From: a virus | Taxonomy: Duplodnaviria; Heunggongvirae; Uroviricota; Caudoviricetes | Virus record (IMG/VR): IMGVR_UViG_2529292720_000011 | Strand: one strand, 5' to 3' | Length of the DNA stretch: 28,769 bases | In this document: one piece after another, positions 5,816 to 12,755 of the stretch | Numbering within the stretch: position 1 is the stretch's first letter | How the letters are laid out: every line of letters starts with the position of its first letter | Position numbers and translations under genes: made by a program | The notes under the pieces: generated by a model | Databases searched by the model: none | Told to the model about the DNA's origin: nothing | What the model saw: only the letters and a program-made list of their open reading frames with translations

Positions 5816-8623
5816 ATGACGGCAGAGTACATCAGGGACTGGCAGCAACCGCGCCACGCAGTGGGGCGTGAAGGAACGGGGATCCCCGCTCCTGAATCCG
5901 CGCTTTCCTCCTGGCTGGATGCCTACCGGGCAGAGAACGAGCGCTGCCAGGAAATGGCTGATGCGGCGTTCTCCGCCACGCCGCTGGGCAACCTGATTAA
6001 TAAAAGCCTGGACGCACAGGAAAAACAGGACAAAACCATCACACTGGCAGGAGACGCCAGAAAGCAGGTACGCGGCGCGGTGGATGAAGCCATGGCCTCG
6101 CTGCGCCTGCTGCCATCCTATCTGCGCGATCCGCTTATTCGCCACCTCTCCTTCCTGCGCAAAAAACAGGAATCTGACCGCCAGAAAGGTAAAAAGAACC
6201 AGCAGGCTGAACGCTACGCGCGCGGGACCCTGCGCAAAATATTCGAACGTCTGGATCGCACTGACGGGCGCTGGCTGACACCGGGTTATCGCTCCCTTGC
6301 CGGGCGCGAACGCCTGGACGATTTGCTTTCCCTGCCGCAGCTCAACAAGCACCAGATACAGACGCTGGCCACCATGACGGCGGCGATGTTCAGCAGCACC
6401 TTCGAAACACTCTGCGATGGCTTTGGTGCCAGAGATGGCGAGCTGACCATGGATGTAATGTTGAAGGCTTACCGGATGCTGGCCCGTATCGCATTACGCC
6501 TGCACATCATGCCGCCACATTACGAAGCCCTGAACAAGAGCGATCCGGATACGGAACTGTTACCGGGCGCAATCCTTCGCCTGACCTGTGCGGAATGGTG
6601 GAAACGCAAATTGTGGCTGTTACGTTGCGAGTGGAGAGAAGAACAACTCCGCGCCGCCTGTCTGGTTTCCAGAAAAACATCACCCTATCTGAGCCAGGAC
6701 GCGTTAAGCGAGTTTCGCGCACAGCGCGAGAAAACACGCGATTTCCTGAAAAGTTTCATGCTGGAAAACGAAGACGGGTTCACGATTGATCTCGAGACAG
6801 TGTATTACGCGGGAGTAAGTAACCCGGTTCACCGTAAGGCAGAAATGATGGCCACCATGAAGGGGCTGGAACTTCTGGCCGAAGCCCGTGGCGACAAAGC
6901 GGTGTTTCTGACTGTCACCTGCCCGTCAAAATACCACGCCACAACAGAGAACGGTCATCCGAATCCCAAATGGAACGGGGCCACCATGCGCGACTCCAGC
7001 GATTACCTGGTTAACACGTTTTTTGCGGCGGTCCGCAAGAAACTGAACCGCGACGGCCTGCGCTGGTATGGCATCCGCACGGTGGAGCCTCACCATGACG
7101 GCACCGTGCACTGGCATATGATGGTCTTTGCACATCCGGACGAGATTGAAACCATCGTGTCCCACGTCTGCGATATTGCCATTCAGGAAGACCGCCACGA
7201 GCTGGGCGATGACATAACTCCGCGTTTTAAGGCGGAGTACGTAGACGGCTCAAAAGGCACACCAACCAGCTACATCGCCACCTACATCGGAAAGAACCTG
7301 GACAGCCGCGCCGTGGATGGCATCGACCAGAAAACGGGCAAGCCACGCGTTGACCACGAAACCGGAAAATCAATGGCCGAGAGCGTGGAACGCGCCATCG
7401 GCTGGGCGCGCCTTCACCGGGTCCGCCAGTTCCAGTTCTTTGGCATCCCCTCCCGTCAGGTGTGGCGTGAACTCCGCCGCCTTGCCAGCCAGATGGCACG
7501 CAACCCGGAAGGCCCGCAACGGCTGAAGGATGACGCAATGGATGCGGTACTCGCTGCCGCTGATGCAGGATGTTTTGCCACCTACATAGAGAAACAGGGC
7601 GGCGTACTTGTTCCACGCAAAGACTACCTGATTCGCACCGCCTACGACCTCGCCGATGAGCTGAACGATTACGGCGAACAGAGCGTACAGATTTACGGGA
7701 TCTGGTCACCACTCATCGGGGAATCCTCCCGTGTGTGCACGCATCCGGATAACTGGAAGCTGGTAAGACGCAAACCGGAAGCGGAAGACAGCGCCCGCGA
7801 AAATGGTTTTGACCTTCAGGGCGGCCCTGCCGCCCCTTGGACTCGTGGCAATAACTGTCCCCGTGTACAGGAAACAGGCAACAGCGGGACAGAACAGTCG
7901 AAAGAACGGCCAGCACCGTGGCCGCAGCTTCCTGACGGCGTTGAAGTGAACGAATGGATGCGCTCACTGAAACGGCACGAACGCCGGGCGCTGATGCGTT
8001 CGCTTCGTGACAAACAGGTAAAAAACAGCAGTGATGAAATGCAGAGCTGGACACAGAGCCGCAAACAGCAGCGGCCTTTGCCTGATAACCACGAATTACT
8101 CGCTAAAGAATGGCGGGAGTCTGCCGAATCTCTCGGCCTGCATATCGGTGAACAGCAGATGCAGCACCTGCTACGGGGCGGCAGCCTGTACGTTGACGGC
8201 AGCATCATTGCACCGCAGGGATATGAAATTGTACGCAAACCGGATACCCGCCCGGACAGCCGAATCACGCAGCTCTGGCAGCACCTGAGCCGTAATCACG
8301 GCGTAAGCAGCACGGAGATCCGCCATAACCCGGTCGCCAGCTATCTGGCACAGCTGGGGGCATCAGACCCCGAAGCCGCCGCACGCCTGGCATCCGCACT
8401 TCAGCAGGATCAGAACACCATGAAAACACCCGTTACCGTGCTTTCTGACATGCTGCGCGCCATCCGCGACGCAGAGCACGCACAGAGAATCAGTGAAACC
8501 ACTGAACGCGCCAGCCGCAAAGCAGACCTGCTGCAGGGTGGCCTGACCAGTGGAAACAAAAAACAGACAGAAACGGGATCCACAAATCCCGTAAATGAGC
8601 AAAAAACGCGCCGCGATATATGA
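5816..8623 (+). CDS. A: Replication initiation endonuclease gpA (rolling-circle initiator, P2 A family), 935 aa
   Basis: Motifs VTCPSKYHA and TVEPHHDGTVHWHMMVF (HUH-type histidine motif) plus tyrosine-rich catalytic region; position after the early operon as in P2/186. Confidence 0.85.
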   Translation: MTAEYIRDWQQPRHAVGREGTGIPAPESALSSWLDAYRAENERCQEMADAAFSATPLGNLINKSLDAQEKQDKTITLAGDARKQVRGAVDEAMASLRLLPSYLRDPLIRHLSFLRKKQESDRQKGKKNQQAERYARGTLRKIFERLDRTDGRWLTPGYRSLAGRERLDDLLSLPQLNKHQIQTLATMTAAMFSSTFETLCDGFGARDGELTMDVMLKAYRMLARIALRLHIMPPHYEALNKSDPDTELLPGAILRLTCAEWWKRKLWLLRCEWREEQLRAACLVSRKTSPYLSQDALSEFRAQREKTRDFLKSFMLENEDGFTIDLETVYYAGVSNPVHRKAEMMATMKGLELLAEARGDKAVFLTVTCPSKYHATTENGHPNPKWNGATMRDSSDYLVNTFFAAVRKKLNRDGLRWYGIRTVEPHHDGTVHWHMMVFAHPDEIETIVSHVCDIAIQEDRHELGDDITPRFKAEYVDGSKGTPTSYIATYIGKNLDSRAVDGIDQKTGKPRVDHETGKSMAESVERAIGWARLHRVRQFQFFGIPSRQVWRELRRLASQMARNPEGPQRLKDDAMDAVLAAADAGCFATYIEKQGGVLVPRKDYLIRTAYDLADELNDYGEQSVQIYGIWSPLIGESSRVCTHPDNWKLVRRKPEAEDSARENGFDLQGGPAAPWTRGNNCPRVQETGNSGTEQSKERPAPWPQLPDGVEVNEWMRSLKRHERRALMRSLRDKQVKNSSDEMQSWTQSRKQQRPLPDNHELLAKEWRESAESLGLHIGEQQMQHLLRGGSLYVDGSIIAPQGYEIVRKPDTRPDSRITQLWQHLSRNHGVSSTEIRHNPVASYLAQLGASDPEAAARLASALQQDQNTMKTPVTVLSDMLRAIRDAEHAQRISETTERASRKADLLQGGLTSGNKKQTETGSTNPVNEQKTRRDI

Positions 8624-8699
8624 AGCGCGCACAAAACAGGCGAAAGCGGGATTTAAAAATCCCGTAAACGGTTAATTAACCAACATAAGGAAAATCGAC

Positions 8700-9659
8700 A
8701 TGAAAATTTGTATCGACGACGGCTCCACCAACATCAAGCTGGCATGGACTGAGAACGGCGAACGCCGCAACGCCATCAGCCCGAACAGCTTCAAGTCGGA
8801 ATGGTCTGCGCCGTTCGGTGGCACGCATCCCGCGAACTACATGCTTGATGGCGTGCGCTATGGCTTTGATCCGGTCAGCGATCGTTTTGTCCAGACGACT
8901 GACACGCAATACCAGTACAGCGATGTGAATGTAATCGCCATTCATCACGCGCTGGTCAAATCAGGCATCACGCCACAGGAGGTGGATGTGGTTGTCACCC
9001 TGCCACTGAGCGAGTATTTCGACACAAACGCACAGCCGGACATGGCCAACATCAACCGCAAAAAAGCGAACGTCATGCGCCCGGTGGAGTACCAGAACGG
9101 CGAAGCATTCACTATCCGTAACGTACGGGTTATGCCTGAATCCATTCCGGCTGGCTTTAAGGCACTGGCTGACATGAGTCCGTTTGAATCCCTGCTGATT
9201 GTGGATTTGGGCGGAACCACGCTGGATGTGGCAAAGGTTCAGGGGCAGCTGGCAGGTATCAGCCAGGTGTTTTGCGATCCAAACGTAGGCGTTTCCCTGA
9301 TGGCTGATGCCGTGCTGTCGGTGATGGCCACTAACGGTATGCGTACCAGTCACCACATCGCCAATACCATTATTGAGCACCGTCACGATGAAGCCTGGCT
9401 GCGCCAGCACATTCACAATGACGCGCATTACAACAGCCTGATGGCGGTTATTCGTGAAAAGGAGGAGACACTGAAACAACGAGTGATCCGCGCGCTGGCG
9501 GGTTTTTCCGGTTACGGGCGGGTGATGGTTGTCGGTGGAGGGGCGGAGATTGTGGCACCCGCTATCCGCGAAGCCTGCGGAGTTAATGCGACTTTCATCG
9601 CGGACGGGGTGCCACAGTTTGCTCTGGTTAATGGGCTGTACGCAATGAACAAGGAGTAA
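8700..9659 (+). CDS. parM: Actin-like segregation ATPase, ParM/StbA family
   Basis: N-terminus MKICIDDGSTNIKLAW...ISPNSFKSEW matches the R1 ParM N-terminus as recalled (MLVFIDDGSTNIKLQW...ISPNSFKREW); phosphate-2 LIVDLGGTTLDVA and adenosine VMVVGGGAEIV motifs present; 319 aa. Confidence 0.85.
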   Translation: MKICIDDGSTNIKLAWTENGERRNAISPNSFKSEWSAPFGGTHPANYMLDGVRYGFDPVSDRFVQTTDTQYQYSDVNVIAIHHALVKSGITPQEVDVVVTLPLSEYFDTNAQPDMANINRKKANVMRPVEYQNGEAFTIRNVRVMPESIPAGFKALADMSPFESLLIVDLGGTTLDVAKVQGQLAGISQVFCDPNVGVSLMADAVLSVMATNGMRTSHHIANTIIEHRHDEAWLRQHIHNDAHYNSLMAVIREKEETLKQRVIRALAGFSGYGRVMVVGGGAEIVAPAIREACGVNATFIADGVPQFALVNGLYAMNKE

Positions 9660-9663
9660 ACCA

Positions 9664-9975
9664 ATGACGACACCAACCAGAAGAATAAGTTTCTATCTGA
9701 AGCCAGCTGCCGTCAAGAACGAAGGAGAAGCATGCGCATGGCTGGACAGCCTTACACCAGAAGCCCGCAAAAGCGGCCAACGCGTGGCTTTTCTGGCCGG
9801 GCTGGCACTTCTGAAGACGAATCCGGCAGAGGCTTACCGACTGGCCGCATGGGCTGATGATGAGATGTTACCTGTGACACAAATCAGCTCAAAAAAGTTT
9901 GAAGCACAGTCTGCACCAGTGGCTAAGATAACCAGCCAGATGGCTGGGAATATCCGGGCGTTATTTCCTGGGTAA
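9664..9975 (+). CDS. parR: ParR-like RHH centromere-binding adaptor (103 aa)
   Basis: Immediately downstream of parM; RRISFYLKP...WLDSLTPEARKSGQRVAFLAGLALL...NIRALFPG parallels R1 ParR as recalled (RRTIAFKLNP...TLDSIPQGERSRL...ALTAGLALY...ILRSLFP). Confidence 0.6.
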   Translation: MTTPTRRISFYLKPAAVKNEGEACAWLDSLTPEARKSGQRVAFLAGLALLKTNPAEAYRLAAWADDEMLPVTQISSKKFEAQSAPVAKITSQMAGNIRALFPG

Positions 9976-10102
9976 AAGCATCTGCGCGAAAAATGCTCAC
10001 ATTTATAGAAACAGTATCATTCCATTTGGCGCACTTACTTCAATAATCGATCTGTTAAACAAATAGATTGTCTATTATCTATCGATTAAAACGATCAATT
10101 AT

Positions 10103-10131
10103 CTTGACAGTAATGTGCCTTTTTGTAAGAT
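10103..10131 (+). promoter_or_regulatory. Candidate sigma70 promoter
   Basis: TTGACA, 17-bp spacer, TAAGAT (TTGACAgtaatgtgcctttttgtAAGAT). Confidence 0.35.
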
Positions 10132-10236
10132 CGTTCGCATTGTGAGCGACAAGATAATTGCGCGGCATTGTCCATGCAAAACGCCCCAATAGCAGCAACT
10201 ATTGGGGCGTAGAACTCGGTCGGACTCACTTAACCT

Positions 10237-10323
10237 GATATGCGTGCCTTCCGAAGTAAATCAAAATGTGCGTCGTATATTTTATTGCTTACACGCACCT
10301 CTGTAAAGGCACGCATATTTTTC
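10237..10323 (+). other. Structured RNA leader / terminator-like element
   Basis: 13-bp arms atatgcgtgcctt (10238-10250) and aaggcacgcatat (10306-10318) enclose a nested hairpin gtgcgt/acgcac and are followed by a T-run; sits 17 nt upstream of the GTG at 10340. Confidence 0.4.
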
Positions 10324-10339
10324 CTATGAGGTAAATAAA

Positions 10340-10609
10340 GTGCGGGCTAAAACAGGTATTTGCAAGAACCCTCATCGTTATAACCCAACATTTCTGTCTC
10401 TCCCTGAATATCAAGGACAAGAAGGTCGGCACAAATGCGCTGCCTGTGCTTTTGAGCTAGGCATAAAAGATGCGCTTGAAGGACGCGCTATGGCTCAGAA
10501 TGATTTAGTTTTAGCTAACATTCCGTTTAGCCAGGCTGGAACTGTAAGGCACAGAGATGCTTATGAAGCATATGTTAGTGGTTGGCGATTAATACACAGC
10601 AACAATTGA
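10340..10609 (+). CDS. Hypothetical small Cys/His-containing protein (89 aa)
   Basis: GTG start with GAGG 8 nt upstream; C-x(3)-H ... H-K-C-A-A-C pattern may form a small zinc-binding knuckle; followed by a strong terminator. Confidence 0.5.
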   Translation: MRAKTGICKNPHRYNPTFLSLPEYQGQEGRHKCAACAFELGIKDALEGRAMAQNDLVLANIPFSQAGTVRHRDAYEAYVSGWRLIHSNN

Positions 10610-10616
10610 TATTTTT

Positions 10617-10642
10617 GAAGCGCCGATAAGGCGCTTTTTTTG
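10617..10642 (+). terminator. Rho-independent terminator
   Basis: gaagcgcc-gata-aggcgc stem-loop followed by TTTTTTT. Confidence 0.65.
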
Positions 10643-10643
10643 T

Positions 10644-10673
10644 TTGCACGATAGTGCACAAGTTTGCACAATT
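10644..10673. repeat. Three direct repeats of TTTGCAC/AGTGCAC with 10-bp periodicity (iteron-like)
   Basis: tttgcacgat / agtgcacaag / tttgcacaat read directly; a fourth GTGCAC at 10736-10741. Confidence 0.5.
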
Positions 10674-11169
10674 TTTTTGAACGACTTTTTGTACTTCCGG
10701 CCCGCGTGGCGGCTGGATCCGTCAAGGATCCGTACGTGCACAAAAAACGCGTTTTTTCTACGCGCAGGTGACGGGGGAACAGCCCGCGTTTCAGGGGGTA
10801 AATAGCATTCCCTGAACGATGTCGCAGAGACACAACAGAATGGCCATATTTCTCACGCTGAGCATGAAAAAGGCGTGAGGGCTTTTGATTTGATGGGGGG
10901 AAAGGTAAGGCCGTCAAAATCGCACTGAGGCAGCGAGAACATACAGTCAACGTGGTGGGATTGCGTAAGAGTCTGACCGTCGATGGTGGCGATAAACTGG
11001 AAGGCGTCGTGAAATTATCTGATTGATACAGGAGCTGGAGAGTCGGGGCATAAATTTTTTATGCCCCGGCGAAGCAGCAGACAAGCGAAGCGCGTCAGCG
11101 ATACGGCACCTTGCCGACCATACTTCGTAAGTGCAAAATACGAGCAAAGAAATCAATGGAGGCTGTCTT

Positions 11170-11694
11170 ATGGTCATTAATTACAAGCAGTTAAGAGAAA
11201 AACGGGAGCAGGTAAAGGAGAGCTTTCGCCGCAATGAAGATCTGACCCCGCTTGTACGCCTTGCCCAGGGCATTGTTGATGCTTATGAAATCTCGCTGGA
11301 GCTGCCATCACAGACCTGGACAGATAGCGACGGTAATCGCCAGCATTACGTTTCATGCGGACTGGAAGCAGCCGAAGGATTTCGCAGAATGCCTTTATCT
11401 CAGATCCCTGCCGCTACCCCCAAAGCAAGGGGCGGCAATGATGAGCGAAAACTGATTTTCAGCATTGAGACAGTGGTTGACGACACACCTGGCGAAGTCG
11501 CCTTCGTGCATACTCCTCTTTCGATCGCAATGTATAACGATGAAATACAGGTTCGCGTTAATAATAATATCGTGCCACTTAAAGAAGGTAATTCACCCTA
11601 CACCACCGTTTGTGAAGCCATTCAATATTACGTTTTCTCTGAAATTGATAATCTCAAGCCTGACGGCACCCAGAAAATGGTTCAGCTCTGGTAA
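11170..11694 (+). CDS. Hypothetical cargo protein (174 aa from ATG 11170)
   Basis: GGAGG 7 nt upstream of ATG 11170 (ORF track starts at 11131); convergent with portal gene; no motif recognised. Confidence 0.5.
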   Translation: MVINYKQLREKREQVKESFRRNEDLTPLVRLAQGIVDAYEISLELPSQTWTDSDGNRQHYVSCGLEAAEGFRRMPLSQIPAATPKARGGNDERKLIFSIETVVDDTPGEVAFVHTPLSIAMYNDEIQVRVNNNIVPLKEGNSPYTTVCEAIQYYVFSEIDNLKPDGTQKMVQLW

Positions 11695-11726
11695 AAAGGA
11701 CAGCCCCATCACGGGGCTGTTTTTTC
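11693..11726. terminator. Bidirectional intrinsic terminator between convergent genes
   Basis: AAAAA-ggacagcccc-atca-cggggctgt-TTTTTT; overlaps the last codons of the portal gene. Confidence 0.6.
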
Positions 11727-12755
11727 ATCAAGAAGAGCATAAGAGTTAAAACGGATCACCTCTTCGCCAAGCCAGTCATTGATGTGCTTCATGGCCTCCA
11801 TAACGGGCATCAGCTCGTTAATTGCGTAAACCCGCGCGGCCTTCTCCACATCACCAAACGCACTTTTTTCGCCCGGCATCGCCCCCATCAGTTGCGGCGG
11901 AACACGGTGCGCAGCCAGCACATCATCACGGGATGCCGCCTTAACATTCATGAACTCATCTTTTGCGGTGATCTGCTGGAACGGCAAAATTTGCACCCCC
12001 TCTTTGCCCCCGTTGGGCGCATGAATGAGCACGTTTTTAAACGCACCACCACCACGTGCCCCCTGTAGCGTTTCTTTCAGGGAGTCCATGCTTTCGCGGT
12101 TTACCTGCGCTGCACCGATGTAGATGATGCACCCGGCGTGGGATCCGTTGTCGTAGTACAGTTTTCTGAACATGTCCGCCGAATGAGAAAGGCTGGCCGA
12201 GAGTAATGCGCCAAGATATTCCGGCATGCCGTAGATTTCCTGGTTAATATCCGGATTCATCAGGTGGCACACTTTGCCAGGACGAAACTGAAACGCGTCC
12301 TTGCCATCCTGCACATACCACCATGATTCAAGATCGCTTCCGCGTCGCATGTATTTCGCCAGGGCGTGCCGTAATTTAAGCGGTTCGCCGAGCATATTGC
12401 TCCGAAGCTCAAGGAATGCGTTACCGAACACAAACCAGTCCAGCGCCAGCGCCGAGAAATCCTGCCGGGAAAGCAGCGGGTGCGGAATATAGCAGCCGAG
12501 CAATACATTGCGCTTAAAGTAAAGCGCAGACTGATGCCAGGACGTTTGCCGGGCAGCTCTTGCCAGACCGTACCAGTCCACCGGGGTTTCATACCACCGC
12601 CCGTTATCAGCACAGTACATATTGTCCAGCAGGTCATGCCCGGTCAGGCGATAAGGACCATCAAATGTGAATGCACTGAGCGATGATTCTTTCCTGAGCG
12701 CATCAGCGAGATCAATGCGTGAACTCATGCGCACTTTTTTATTTTTTCTGCTCAT
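11709..12755 (-). CDS. Q: Portal protein gpQ (P2 Q-like)
   Basis: 348 aa (P2 Q about 344 aa as recalled); adjacent to and co-oriented with the terminase large subunit. Confidence 0.8.
   Translation of the reverse strand: MSRKNKKVRMSSRIDLADALRKESSLSAFTFDGPYRLTGHDLLDNMYCADNGRWYETPVDWYGLARAARQTSWHQSALYFKRNVLLGCYIPHPLLSRQDFSALALDWFVFGNAFLELRSNMLGEPLKLRHALAKYMRRGSDLESWWYVQDGKDAFQFRPGKVCHLMNPDINQEIYGMPEYLGALLSASLSHSADMFRKLYYDNGSHAGCIIYIGAAQVNRESMDSLKETLQGARGGGAFKNVLIHAPNGGKEGVQILPFQQITAKDEFMNVKAASRDDVLAAHRVPPQLMGAMPGEKSAFGDVEKAARVYAINELMPVMEAMKHINDWLGEEVIRFNSYALLDEKTAP

Follow-up and report, generated by a model that had tools for sequence, protein, structure and literature searches.

In type II partition systems, such as ParMRC (StbA/StbB/parC) of the low-copy plasmids R1 and R100, ParR binds the centromere parC through a ribbon-helix-helix (RHH) domain and uses a conserved C-terminal tail to bind a hydrophobic pocket of ParM, parC itself being made of repeats that lie 5' of the operon and overlap its promoter (reviewed in PMC5016525). 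Integrative elements can carry comparable systems. The integrated prophage CGP3 of Corynebacterium glutamicum encodes AlpAC, whose genes are switched on early in prophage induction and which is needed for efficient replication of the phage DNA, the adaptor AlpA binding sites (alpS) 5' of its own operon (PMC4446434). In SXT/R391, SrpMRC is made only when the excision and replication functions are expressed too, and it stabilises the excised, rolling-circle-replicating form of the element (PMC4489591). In view of these two cases, the premise of a preliminary description of the DNA studied here, namely that type II partition systems belong to low-copy plasmids, is too narrow. Here we compare with these systems a parM-parR cassette found in a stretch of viral DNA of 28,769 nucleotides (IMG/VR record IMGVR_UViG_2529292720_000011; "the window" denotes this whole stretch), which belongs to an integrative, P88-like prophage of the P2 family (genus Xuanwuvirus, Peduoviridae) of Escherichia coli. 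We lean towards the view that the cassette, with two repeated sites upstream of it, is a working ParMRC module that ends the early replication operon and that would partition or position extrachromosomal circles of the phage genome.

The first gene, parM (8700-9659, + strand), encodes a protein of 319 aa that by homology is an actin-like, filament-forming ATPase. It is 52% identical to ParM of plasmid R1 over its full length, matches the Pfam StbA_N (E 3e-82) and ParM C-terminal (E 2e-68) domains, falls into PHROG 691 ("partition protein") and, when searched with phmmer against the PDB, recovers the R1 ParM structure (1mwk) with an E-value of 8.5e-93 and residues 2-316 aligned. The nucleotide-binding blocks DDGSTNIKL (N-terminal), DLGGTTLD and GGGAE are intact, so that the phosphate-1, phosphate-2 and adenosine motifs are all present and are the same as those of R1; the ParM/StbA ATPase motifs and the R1-like N-terminus reported earlier are thus well founded. 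The gene is full length in 60 of 62 retrieved copies, 59 of which are accompanied by a parR of 102-104 aa, and its dN/dS is 0.067 (50 distinct alleles, each compared with that of the window).

The second gene, parR (9664-9975, + strand, 103 aa), begins 5 nt past the parM stop codon, behind an AAGGAG ribosome-binding site of its own. Its product belongs, like R1 ParR, to the StbB/ParR family PF10784 (Plasmid_stab_B; E 1e-23), as well as to PHROG 2515, and is 33% identical to R1 ParR across the first 61 residues (BLASTP; the R1 query was confirmed by 100% matches in many plasmids). The protein is predicted to comprise an RHH-type DNA-binding region at the N-terminus and, beyond a variable linker, a C-terminal NIxxLFP helix; this helix can be aligned with the tail by which R1 ParR binds ParM, and both end regions are homologous to those of the plasmid protein. 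When aligned with ParR proteins from prophages of Hafnia, Plesiomonas, Serratia and Enterobacter (see below) and with that of R1, it shows a conserved N-terminal block (R6, F10, L12, P14) and a C-terminal motif, which is NIxxLFP in E. coli, KKNAMKLIN in R1 and KNAxxLFP in the remaining prophages; N96 is invariant, and L100, F101 and P102 are kept in at least 90% of the aligned sequences. The linker, in contrast, differs in both length and sequence, and its trimming here accounts for the difference in size between this protein and the 117 aa of R1 ParR. The same division is seen in the selection acting on the gene, where dN/dS is 0.03 in codons 1-50 (DNA-binding), 0.57 in codons 51-90 (linker) and 0.05 in codons 91-103 (C-terminal tail). 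Thus parM and the two ends of ParR are under strong purifying selection, and the pair is a complete one of the R1/StbAB family, as the preliminary description had proposed when it likened the 103-aa protein to ParR.

In P88-like phages of E. coli, parR exists in at least three alleles (103, 104 and 101 aa) that are about 55% identical to each other (window 9664-9975 and, at locus L002, 3665-3979). All of them share their first 18 residues and the NIxxLFP motif at the C-terminus, and the arms of the upstream motif described below are the same. Nucleotide similarity among the alleles breaks near window position 9718, which suggests recombination inside parR.

The order of the elements, with repeated sites 5' of parM followed by parM and parR, is also that of R1. 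Two copies of a 24-bp motif, CGGGAT-N6-ATCCCGTAAA, start at 8574 and 8647. The first (cgggatccacaaatcccgtaaatg, 8574-8597, read as CGGGAT-CCACAA-ATCCCGTAAATG) lies within the 3' end of the coding sequence of the replication gene gpA, and the second (cgggatttaaaaatcccgtaaacg, 8647-8670, read as CGGGAT-TTAAAA-ATCCCGTAAACG) starts at -53 and leaves 29 nt to the parM ATG. Both copies, whose positions agree with those first reported, are the core of a longer direct repeat than had been noticed, with 39-nt units at 8557-8595 and 8630-8668 that are 79% identical and lie 73 bp apart. We accordingly delimit a candidate parC site 1 at 8557-8597 and a candidate parC site 2, which may double as operator, at 8630-8670. 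The window contains just these two exact matches to the motif, and the four matches found when up to 3 mismatches are allowed compare with 0.21 expected, a count of four being reached in none of 100 shuffles. Between the second site and parM, the leader (8671-8699, + strand) contains a TTAATTAA box and an AAGGAA ribosome-binding site and is near-invariant in 49 distinct upstream variants from the E. coli clade; it may include a weak -10-like element. Across these variants the GGGA and TCCCGTAAA arms of the motif are kept while the 6-nt spacer varies (CCACAA, CTCACG or TTCACA in copy 1; TTAAAA, TTCAGA or TTGAAA in copy 2), although this clade is too shallow for arm conservation to prove much.

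More telling is the comparison with other genera. Upstream of parM in the Hafnia and Plesiomonas prophages there are exactly two sites each, of the form yGGGAy-N6-AwCCCr, although the flanking DNA does not align. Relative to the parM ATG they stand at -129 and -56 in Hafnia (spacing 73 bp) and at -132 and -60 in Plesiomonas (72 bp), as compared with -126 and -53 in E. coli (73 bp), and a TTAAT(T/C)AA box is found in both genera too. This cross-genus pattern was written after viewing the sequences, and no formal probability therefore applies to it. In Hafnia (locus L008) an open reading frame (ORF) of 167 aa separates gpA from parM, with the sites in and past that ORF, and at locus L076 the upstream context differs while motif copy 2 still adjoins parM; the sites therefore belong to parM, not to gpA. 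The spacing of 73 bp corresponds to about seven helical turns, so that the two sites would face the same side of the helix. As judged from these sequence comparisons, the pair of sites is a good candidate for a minimal parC, and for an operator, to which ParR would bind, in keeping with the role first suggested for them.

Two other functions of the motif were considered and rejected. It is unlikely to be an operator of the immunity repressor, for there is no copy in the C/Cox intergenic region (immunity region, ~2454-2530), or to be the gpA origin, as it tracks parM rather than gpA in L008 and L076. In P2, the origin is located earlier in gene A. A single exact half-site, TTTACGGGAT, which is the reverse complement of ATCCCGTAAA, was seen inside gpA at 7692-7701, about 880 bp 5' of the two full sites; it has no adjoining partner half-site, and about 0.05 chance matches to such a 10-mer are expected in the window.

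The cassette follows directly on gpA (5816-8623, + strand), which encodes a rolling-circle replication endonuclease of 935 aa (Pfam Phage_GPA, E 7e-129; PHROG 91, "nicking at origin of replication"; "replication endonuclease" in RefSeq) and is the last core gene of the early operon. All genes between 2530 and 9975 are on the + strand, the gap between gpA and parM is 76 bp, and a scan of this interval for the sigma-70 consensus detected no promoter. The surroundings are those of an integrative P2-like prophage, as had been recognised, with an integrase gene at 1-1002 and a portal gene at 11709-12755, both on the - strand. Several chromosomes of enterotoxigenic E. coli (ETEC) match the window at 100% identity and that of ETEC H10407 at 99.9%. 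The annotation of H10407 shows a full P2-type gene set, in which the integrase and repressor genes point leftward and the early operon rightward, its last genes being gpA, ParM and ParR; a short variable region then leads to the portal, terminase, capsid, lysis and tail genes. What distinguishes the locus from R1 in this respect is its residence in a chromosomal P2-type prophage with an integrase rather than on a low-copy plasmid, a feature of the context and not of the machinery.

These observations suggest how the module might work. ParR dimers would bind the two GGGA-N8-CCC sites 5' of parM, and binding at the site that precedes the parM ribosome-binding site might in addition control expression. 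With its conserved C-terminal helix ParR would capture the ends of ParM filaments, and ATP-driven polymerisation of ParM would then push apart or position circles of phage DNA. Since the cassette stands right after gpA, on the same strand and at the end of the early operon, in a prophage that is almost always integrated (see below), we infer that it would act only while the genome is a free circle, i.e. after infection and before integration, after excision, or during circle-to-circle replication driven by gpA. Replication of P2 and 186 yields monomeric double-stranded circles, which are also the substrate for packaging, and in lysogens of these phages the immunity repressor silences the early operon.

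Among the described systems, AlpAC of CGP3 is the best functional analogue for a partition-like system in an integrative phage. There too, an integrated prophage encodes an actin-like ATPase together with an adaptor that binds DNA. Unlike AlpC, which is a distant actin-like protein and whose adaptor gene alpA lies upstream, the proteins described here are closely related to ParM and ParR of the canonical plasmid systems, and CGP3 is an unrelated phage of an actinobacterial host. SrpMRC resembles our cassette in being a ParMRC-like system on a normally integrated element, with its centromere 5' of srpM; it belongs, in contrast, to a conjugative element and not to a phage, its SrpR has no recognisable ParR domain whereas ours has PF10784, and it has direct experimental support whereas our cassette is known by sequence analysis.

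Several points weigh against this interpretation. Characterised parC centromeres have 8-10 iterons, as opposed to two sites here; that of R1 is made of ten A/C-rich iterons flanking a promoter, whereas the candidate centromere described here consists of two ~24-bp inverted-repeat sites 73 bp apart with no consensus promoter detected, and a comparison by eye shows the motif and the R1 parC sequence to be unrelated. A sequence search with ParR against the PDB matched no solved ParR structure, and the AlphaFold2 model of the ParR monomer (alignment of 22 sequences) is of low confidence, with a mean pLDDT (predicted local distance difference test) of 57; it places helices at 20-29, 32-52, 54-61 and 87-100, with pLDDT below 50 for the segment 65-88, and its N-terminal strand region followed by helices would fit an RHH fold. 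Co-transcription with gpA, for its part, is presumed only from gene order, the 76-bp gap and the negative consensus promoter scan. In Serratia (L011 5860-5990) and Enterobacter (L012 5860-5990), moreover, the region upstream of parM differs, with an inverted repeat of about 19 bp (AGGAACGAAATAGAAAAAT and its complement, about 30 bp between the arms) together with short GC-arm/TTAAA/GC-arm sites, and ParR is longer (133-134 aa); as the beta-strand region of ParR is nonetheless similar, the assignment of sites to proteins is not fully coherent across the family. The cis-element thus varies between sub-families, as is usual for parC. Finally, about three quarters of the P2-like phages of E. coli do not have the cassette (PMC9122126), so it is not required for P2-type replication or lysogeny.

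One may also consider an alternative in which the cassette serves a facultative plasmid prophage, i.e. in which, instead of integrating, the phage could persist over many generations as an episome of low copy number or in a carrier state. This idea was raised in the preliminary description, and plasmid maintenance of P2-like phages has also been suggested by Rousset et al. 2022 (PMC9122126). The cassette is indeed a complete plasmid-type partition system, and among isolated phages a ParM of this family is otherwise found only in the P1-like phage-plasmid D6 (48% identity), likewise a tailed temperate phage. D6-type phages, however, lysogenise as plasmids with dedicated replicons, whereas P88-like phages have an integrase and occur as integrated prophages. 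Of 1452 occurrences in complete E. coli genomes, 1450 are chromosomal, and no more than seven of 72,556 plasmid records match. Of the latter, four are large (replicons between 228 kb and 1.4 Mb), another measures 272 kb and a further one is a linear fragment, which fits either an integrated prophage or a contig that was not placed. We observed a single stand-alone circular record among these plasmids, NZ_CP148288.1 (34,461 bp, from the cat E. coli isolate Z1323PEC0009), which represents the whole genome of a P88-like phage, integrase, Cox, gpA and parMR included, and a 100% identical phage is integrated in the chromosome of strain Z1323HEC0067 (NZ_CP148378.1) from the same study series. While this record favours an episomal state, spontaneous induction can also yield a circular phage contig in an assembly. 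Two further candidates for an extrachromosomal form were discarded: "Escherichia phage 520873" is a linear excerpt with host genes (yecA, mokW-like) and frameshifts, and the Shigella boydii "plasmid" match is a linear prophage fragment ridden with insertion sequences (IS). Furthermore, the sole replication gene identified in the element is gpA, a rolling-circle initiator of the early lytic operon that the immunity repressor should keep silent in a lysogen, and we saw no theta-type plasmid replicon in it. Near-universal integration, a single circular record and gpA as the only replication function argue for action in a transient free-circle phase over stable plasmid lysogeny, which is poorly supported; we consider the facultative plasmid prophage unlikely, and the element, with its integrase and overwhelmingly chromosomal copies, does not have the character of a phage-plasmid.

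A second alternative concerns the motifs only, which could be RNA hairpins of the early transcript (involved in processing, stability or attenuation) or elements for gpA or another regulator, rather than ParR sites. Copy 1 lies within the gpA coding sequence, there are two copies rather than a classical iteron array, and in E. coli both copies are predicted to fold into stable hairpins (-10.3 and -13.5 kcal/mol, with z-scores of -4.0 and -3.4). On the minus strand copy 1 was scored as terminator-like in a scan; copy 2 was not, though a T-containing tract follows its stem. In Hafnia (-4.6 and -4.7 kcal/mol) and Plesiomonas (-6.7 and -5.8), however, the hairpin is weak when set beside that of E. 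coli (-10.3 and -11.5 in the same comparison), with 3-4 base pairs left, while the GGGA-N8-CCC bases, the number of copies, their spacing and their distance to parM are kept; such loss of the structure with retention of the bases favours protein-binding sites and hence a candidate parC. The association of the motif with parM rather than gpA in L008 and L076, its absence from the immunity region and a scan of 8000-11800 with Rfam, in which no family was found at the motifs, all point the same way, and we regard an RNA or other regulatory role as improbable.

Very unlikely, in our estimate, is a repurposed or competitive function, be it as lysogenic-conversion cargo of the gpA-gpQ hotspot, as a source of centromere incompatibility against related phages or plasmids, or as a filament with a purpose other than the movement of phage DNA: the cassette does sit at the edge of a locus that is a hotspot for anti-phage cargo (PMC9122126), and a chromosomal ParMR has been turned to cell-shape control in Anabaena (bioRxiv 10.1101/2025.06.27.661541), but no PADLOC model matched ParM, ParR, gpA or the two downstream ORFs, so that a known defence system is unlikely; a tblastn search of the 72,556 plasmids for this type of ParR returned prophage-like records only and no true plasmid, which leaves incompatibility without a plasmid target; the cassette is fixed beside gpA while the cargo beyond it varies and similarity breaks right after parR; and the DNA-binding end of ParR, its ParM-binding end and the cis sites are conserved together, as transport of DNA predicts.

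The cassette is widespread. The parMR segment is present in 1304 of 5426 complete E. coli genomes (~24%), and it occurs in isolated phages, among them P88, phiSM (of Citrobacter rodentium), PhiR44_2, Chuche and 569R5. ParM homologues form a tight E. coli clade of at least 91% identity, followed by a gap, after which come the proteins of Plesiomonas (63%, L010), Hafnia (62%, L008), Serratia (58%, L011) and Enterobacter (54%, L012). Scans with ParM yielded three close relatives from genome contigs and relatives of at least 83% identity from viral contigs, the distant ones having been reached through the contigs that encode them. In all four loci ParM and a PF10784 ParR are encoded just 3' of a Phage_GPA gene, with 0-2 small ORFs between, and 5' of variable cargo, Ogr and the portal gene; the order gpA-ParM-ParR-cargo-portal is thus common to five genera. 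In a neighbour-joining tree, which has no support values and whose sampling is biased towards matches to the query, the prophage ParM proteins fall into two neighbouring clades separate from plasmid ParM proteins, including that of R1. Such a topology is compatible with an old association between ParM and P2-like phages.

The combination of ParM with a PF10784 ParR was also seen outside phages. On a Dickeya chromosome it lies beside an integrase and TraG/TraU, in what looks like an integrative and conjugative element (L095 7001-8373), and in Mangrovibacter beside Rep3, ParAB and anti-restriction genes, with the appearance of an integrated plasmid (L096 7001-8361). A ParM that is 97% identical is encoded on a 226-kb contig labelled Vagococcus sp., a Firmicute (L007, NZ_JBQPOM010000071.1), which probably reflects contamination of the assembly or mislabelling.

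Directly 3' of parR, positions 9976-11700 of the window are the variable cargo region of the P2 gpA-gpQ hotspot. Similarity to relatives ends exactly at the end of parR, and in ETEC H10407 this region carries an IS1 insertion. In the window it holds two ORFs, of 89 aa (10340-10609, phrog_3941) and 187 aa (11131-11694, phrog_5091), neither with a Pfam or PADLOC match. They are preceded by an operator-like arrangement, consisting of an imperfect 26-nt inverted repeat (10043-10102) and a promoter-like TTGACA-16-TAAGAT (10104-10131) flanked by a perfect 11-nt inverted repeat, CAATTATCTTG/CAAGATAATTG (10096-10160). A perfect 12-bp hairpin at 10181-10210 is terminator-like on the minus strand and gives a sub-threshold match to the Rfam "sar RNA" (22 bits against a gathering score of 43, E 0.44).

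As a feature, the cassette is not new. In RefSeq its products go under the names "plasmid segregation protein ParM" and "plasmid partitioning/stability family protein"; the paper on phiSM enters the gene as a "fitness" factor but does not analyse it; and for about a quarter of E. coli P2-like phages, a putative partition system at the gpA-gpQ locus was reported by Rousset et al. 2022. The novelty implied by the preliminary description does not hold, since both the system and the question whether such phages are maintained as plasmids were already in print (PMC9122126). We searched the literature for functional work on ParMR in P2-like phages and came across none. What appears to be undescribed is the two-site candidate centromere with its conservation across genera, the segment-wise pattern of selection in ParR, and the finding that P2-like prophages of Hafnia, Plesiomonas, Serratia and Enterobacter contain the module as well. 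All three refine a known and annotated feature, which as an annotation is ordinary.

The main reason for interest lies in the contrast between a cassette that is common and strongly conserved and a role that has been little studied. If it acts on phage DNA, it would offer a simple E. coli model of an integrative phage that uses an actin-like filament, it would extend the precedents of AlpAC in CGP3 and SrpMRC in SXT to a major family of enterobacterial prophages, and it would bear on the stability of the prophage and on the efficiency of lysogenisation and replication, which matter because variable defence and virulence cargo adjoins the cassette. Tentatively, we suggest that P88-like phages, and prophages of at least four other enterobacterial genera, may use a plasmid-derived actin spindle, with a minimal two-site centromere that lies partly inside the replication gene, either to separate and position the monomeric DNA circles made by gpA rolling-circle replication or to carry unintegrated genomes through cell divisions in a bet-hedging carrier state. 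If true, an integrative phage that is genetically tractable would have a widespread cytoskeletal function, carried by about a quarter of E. coli genomes.

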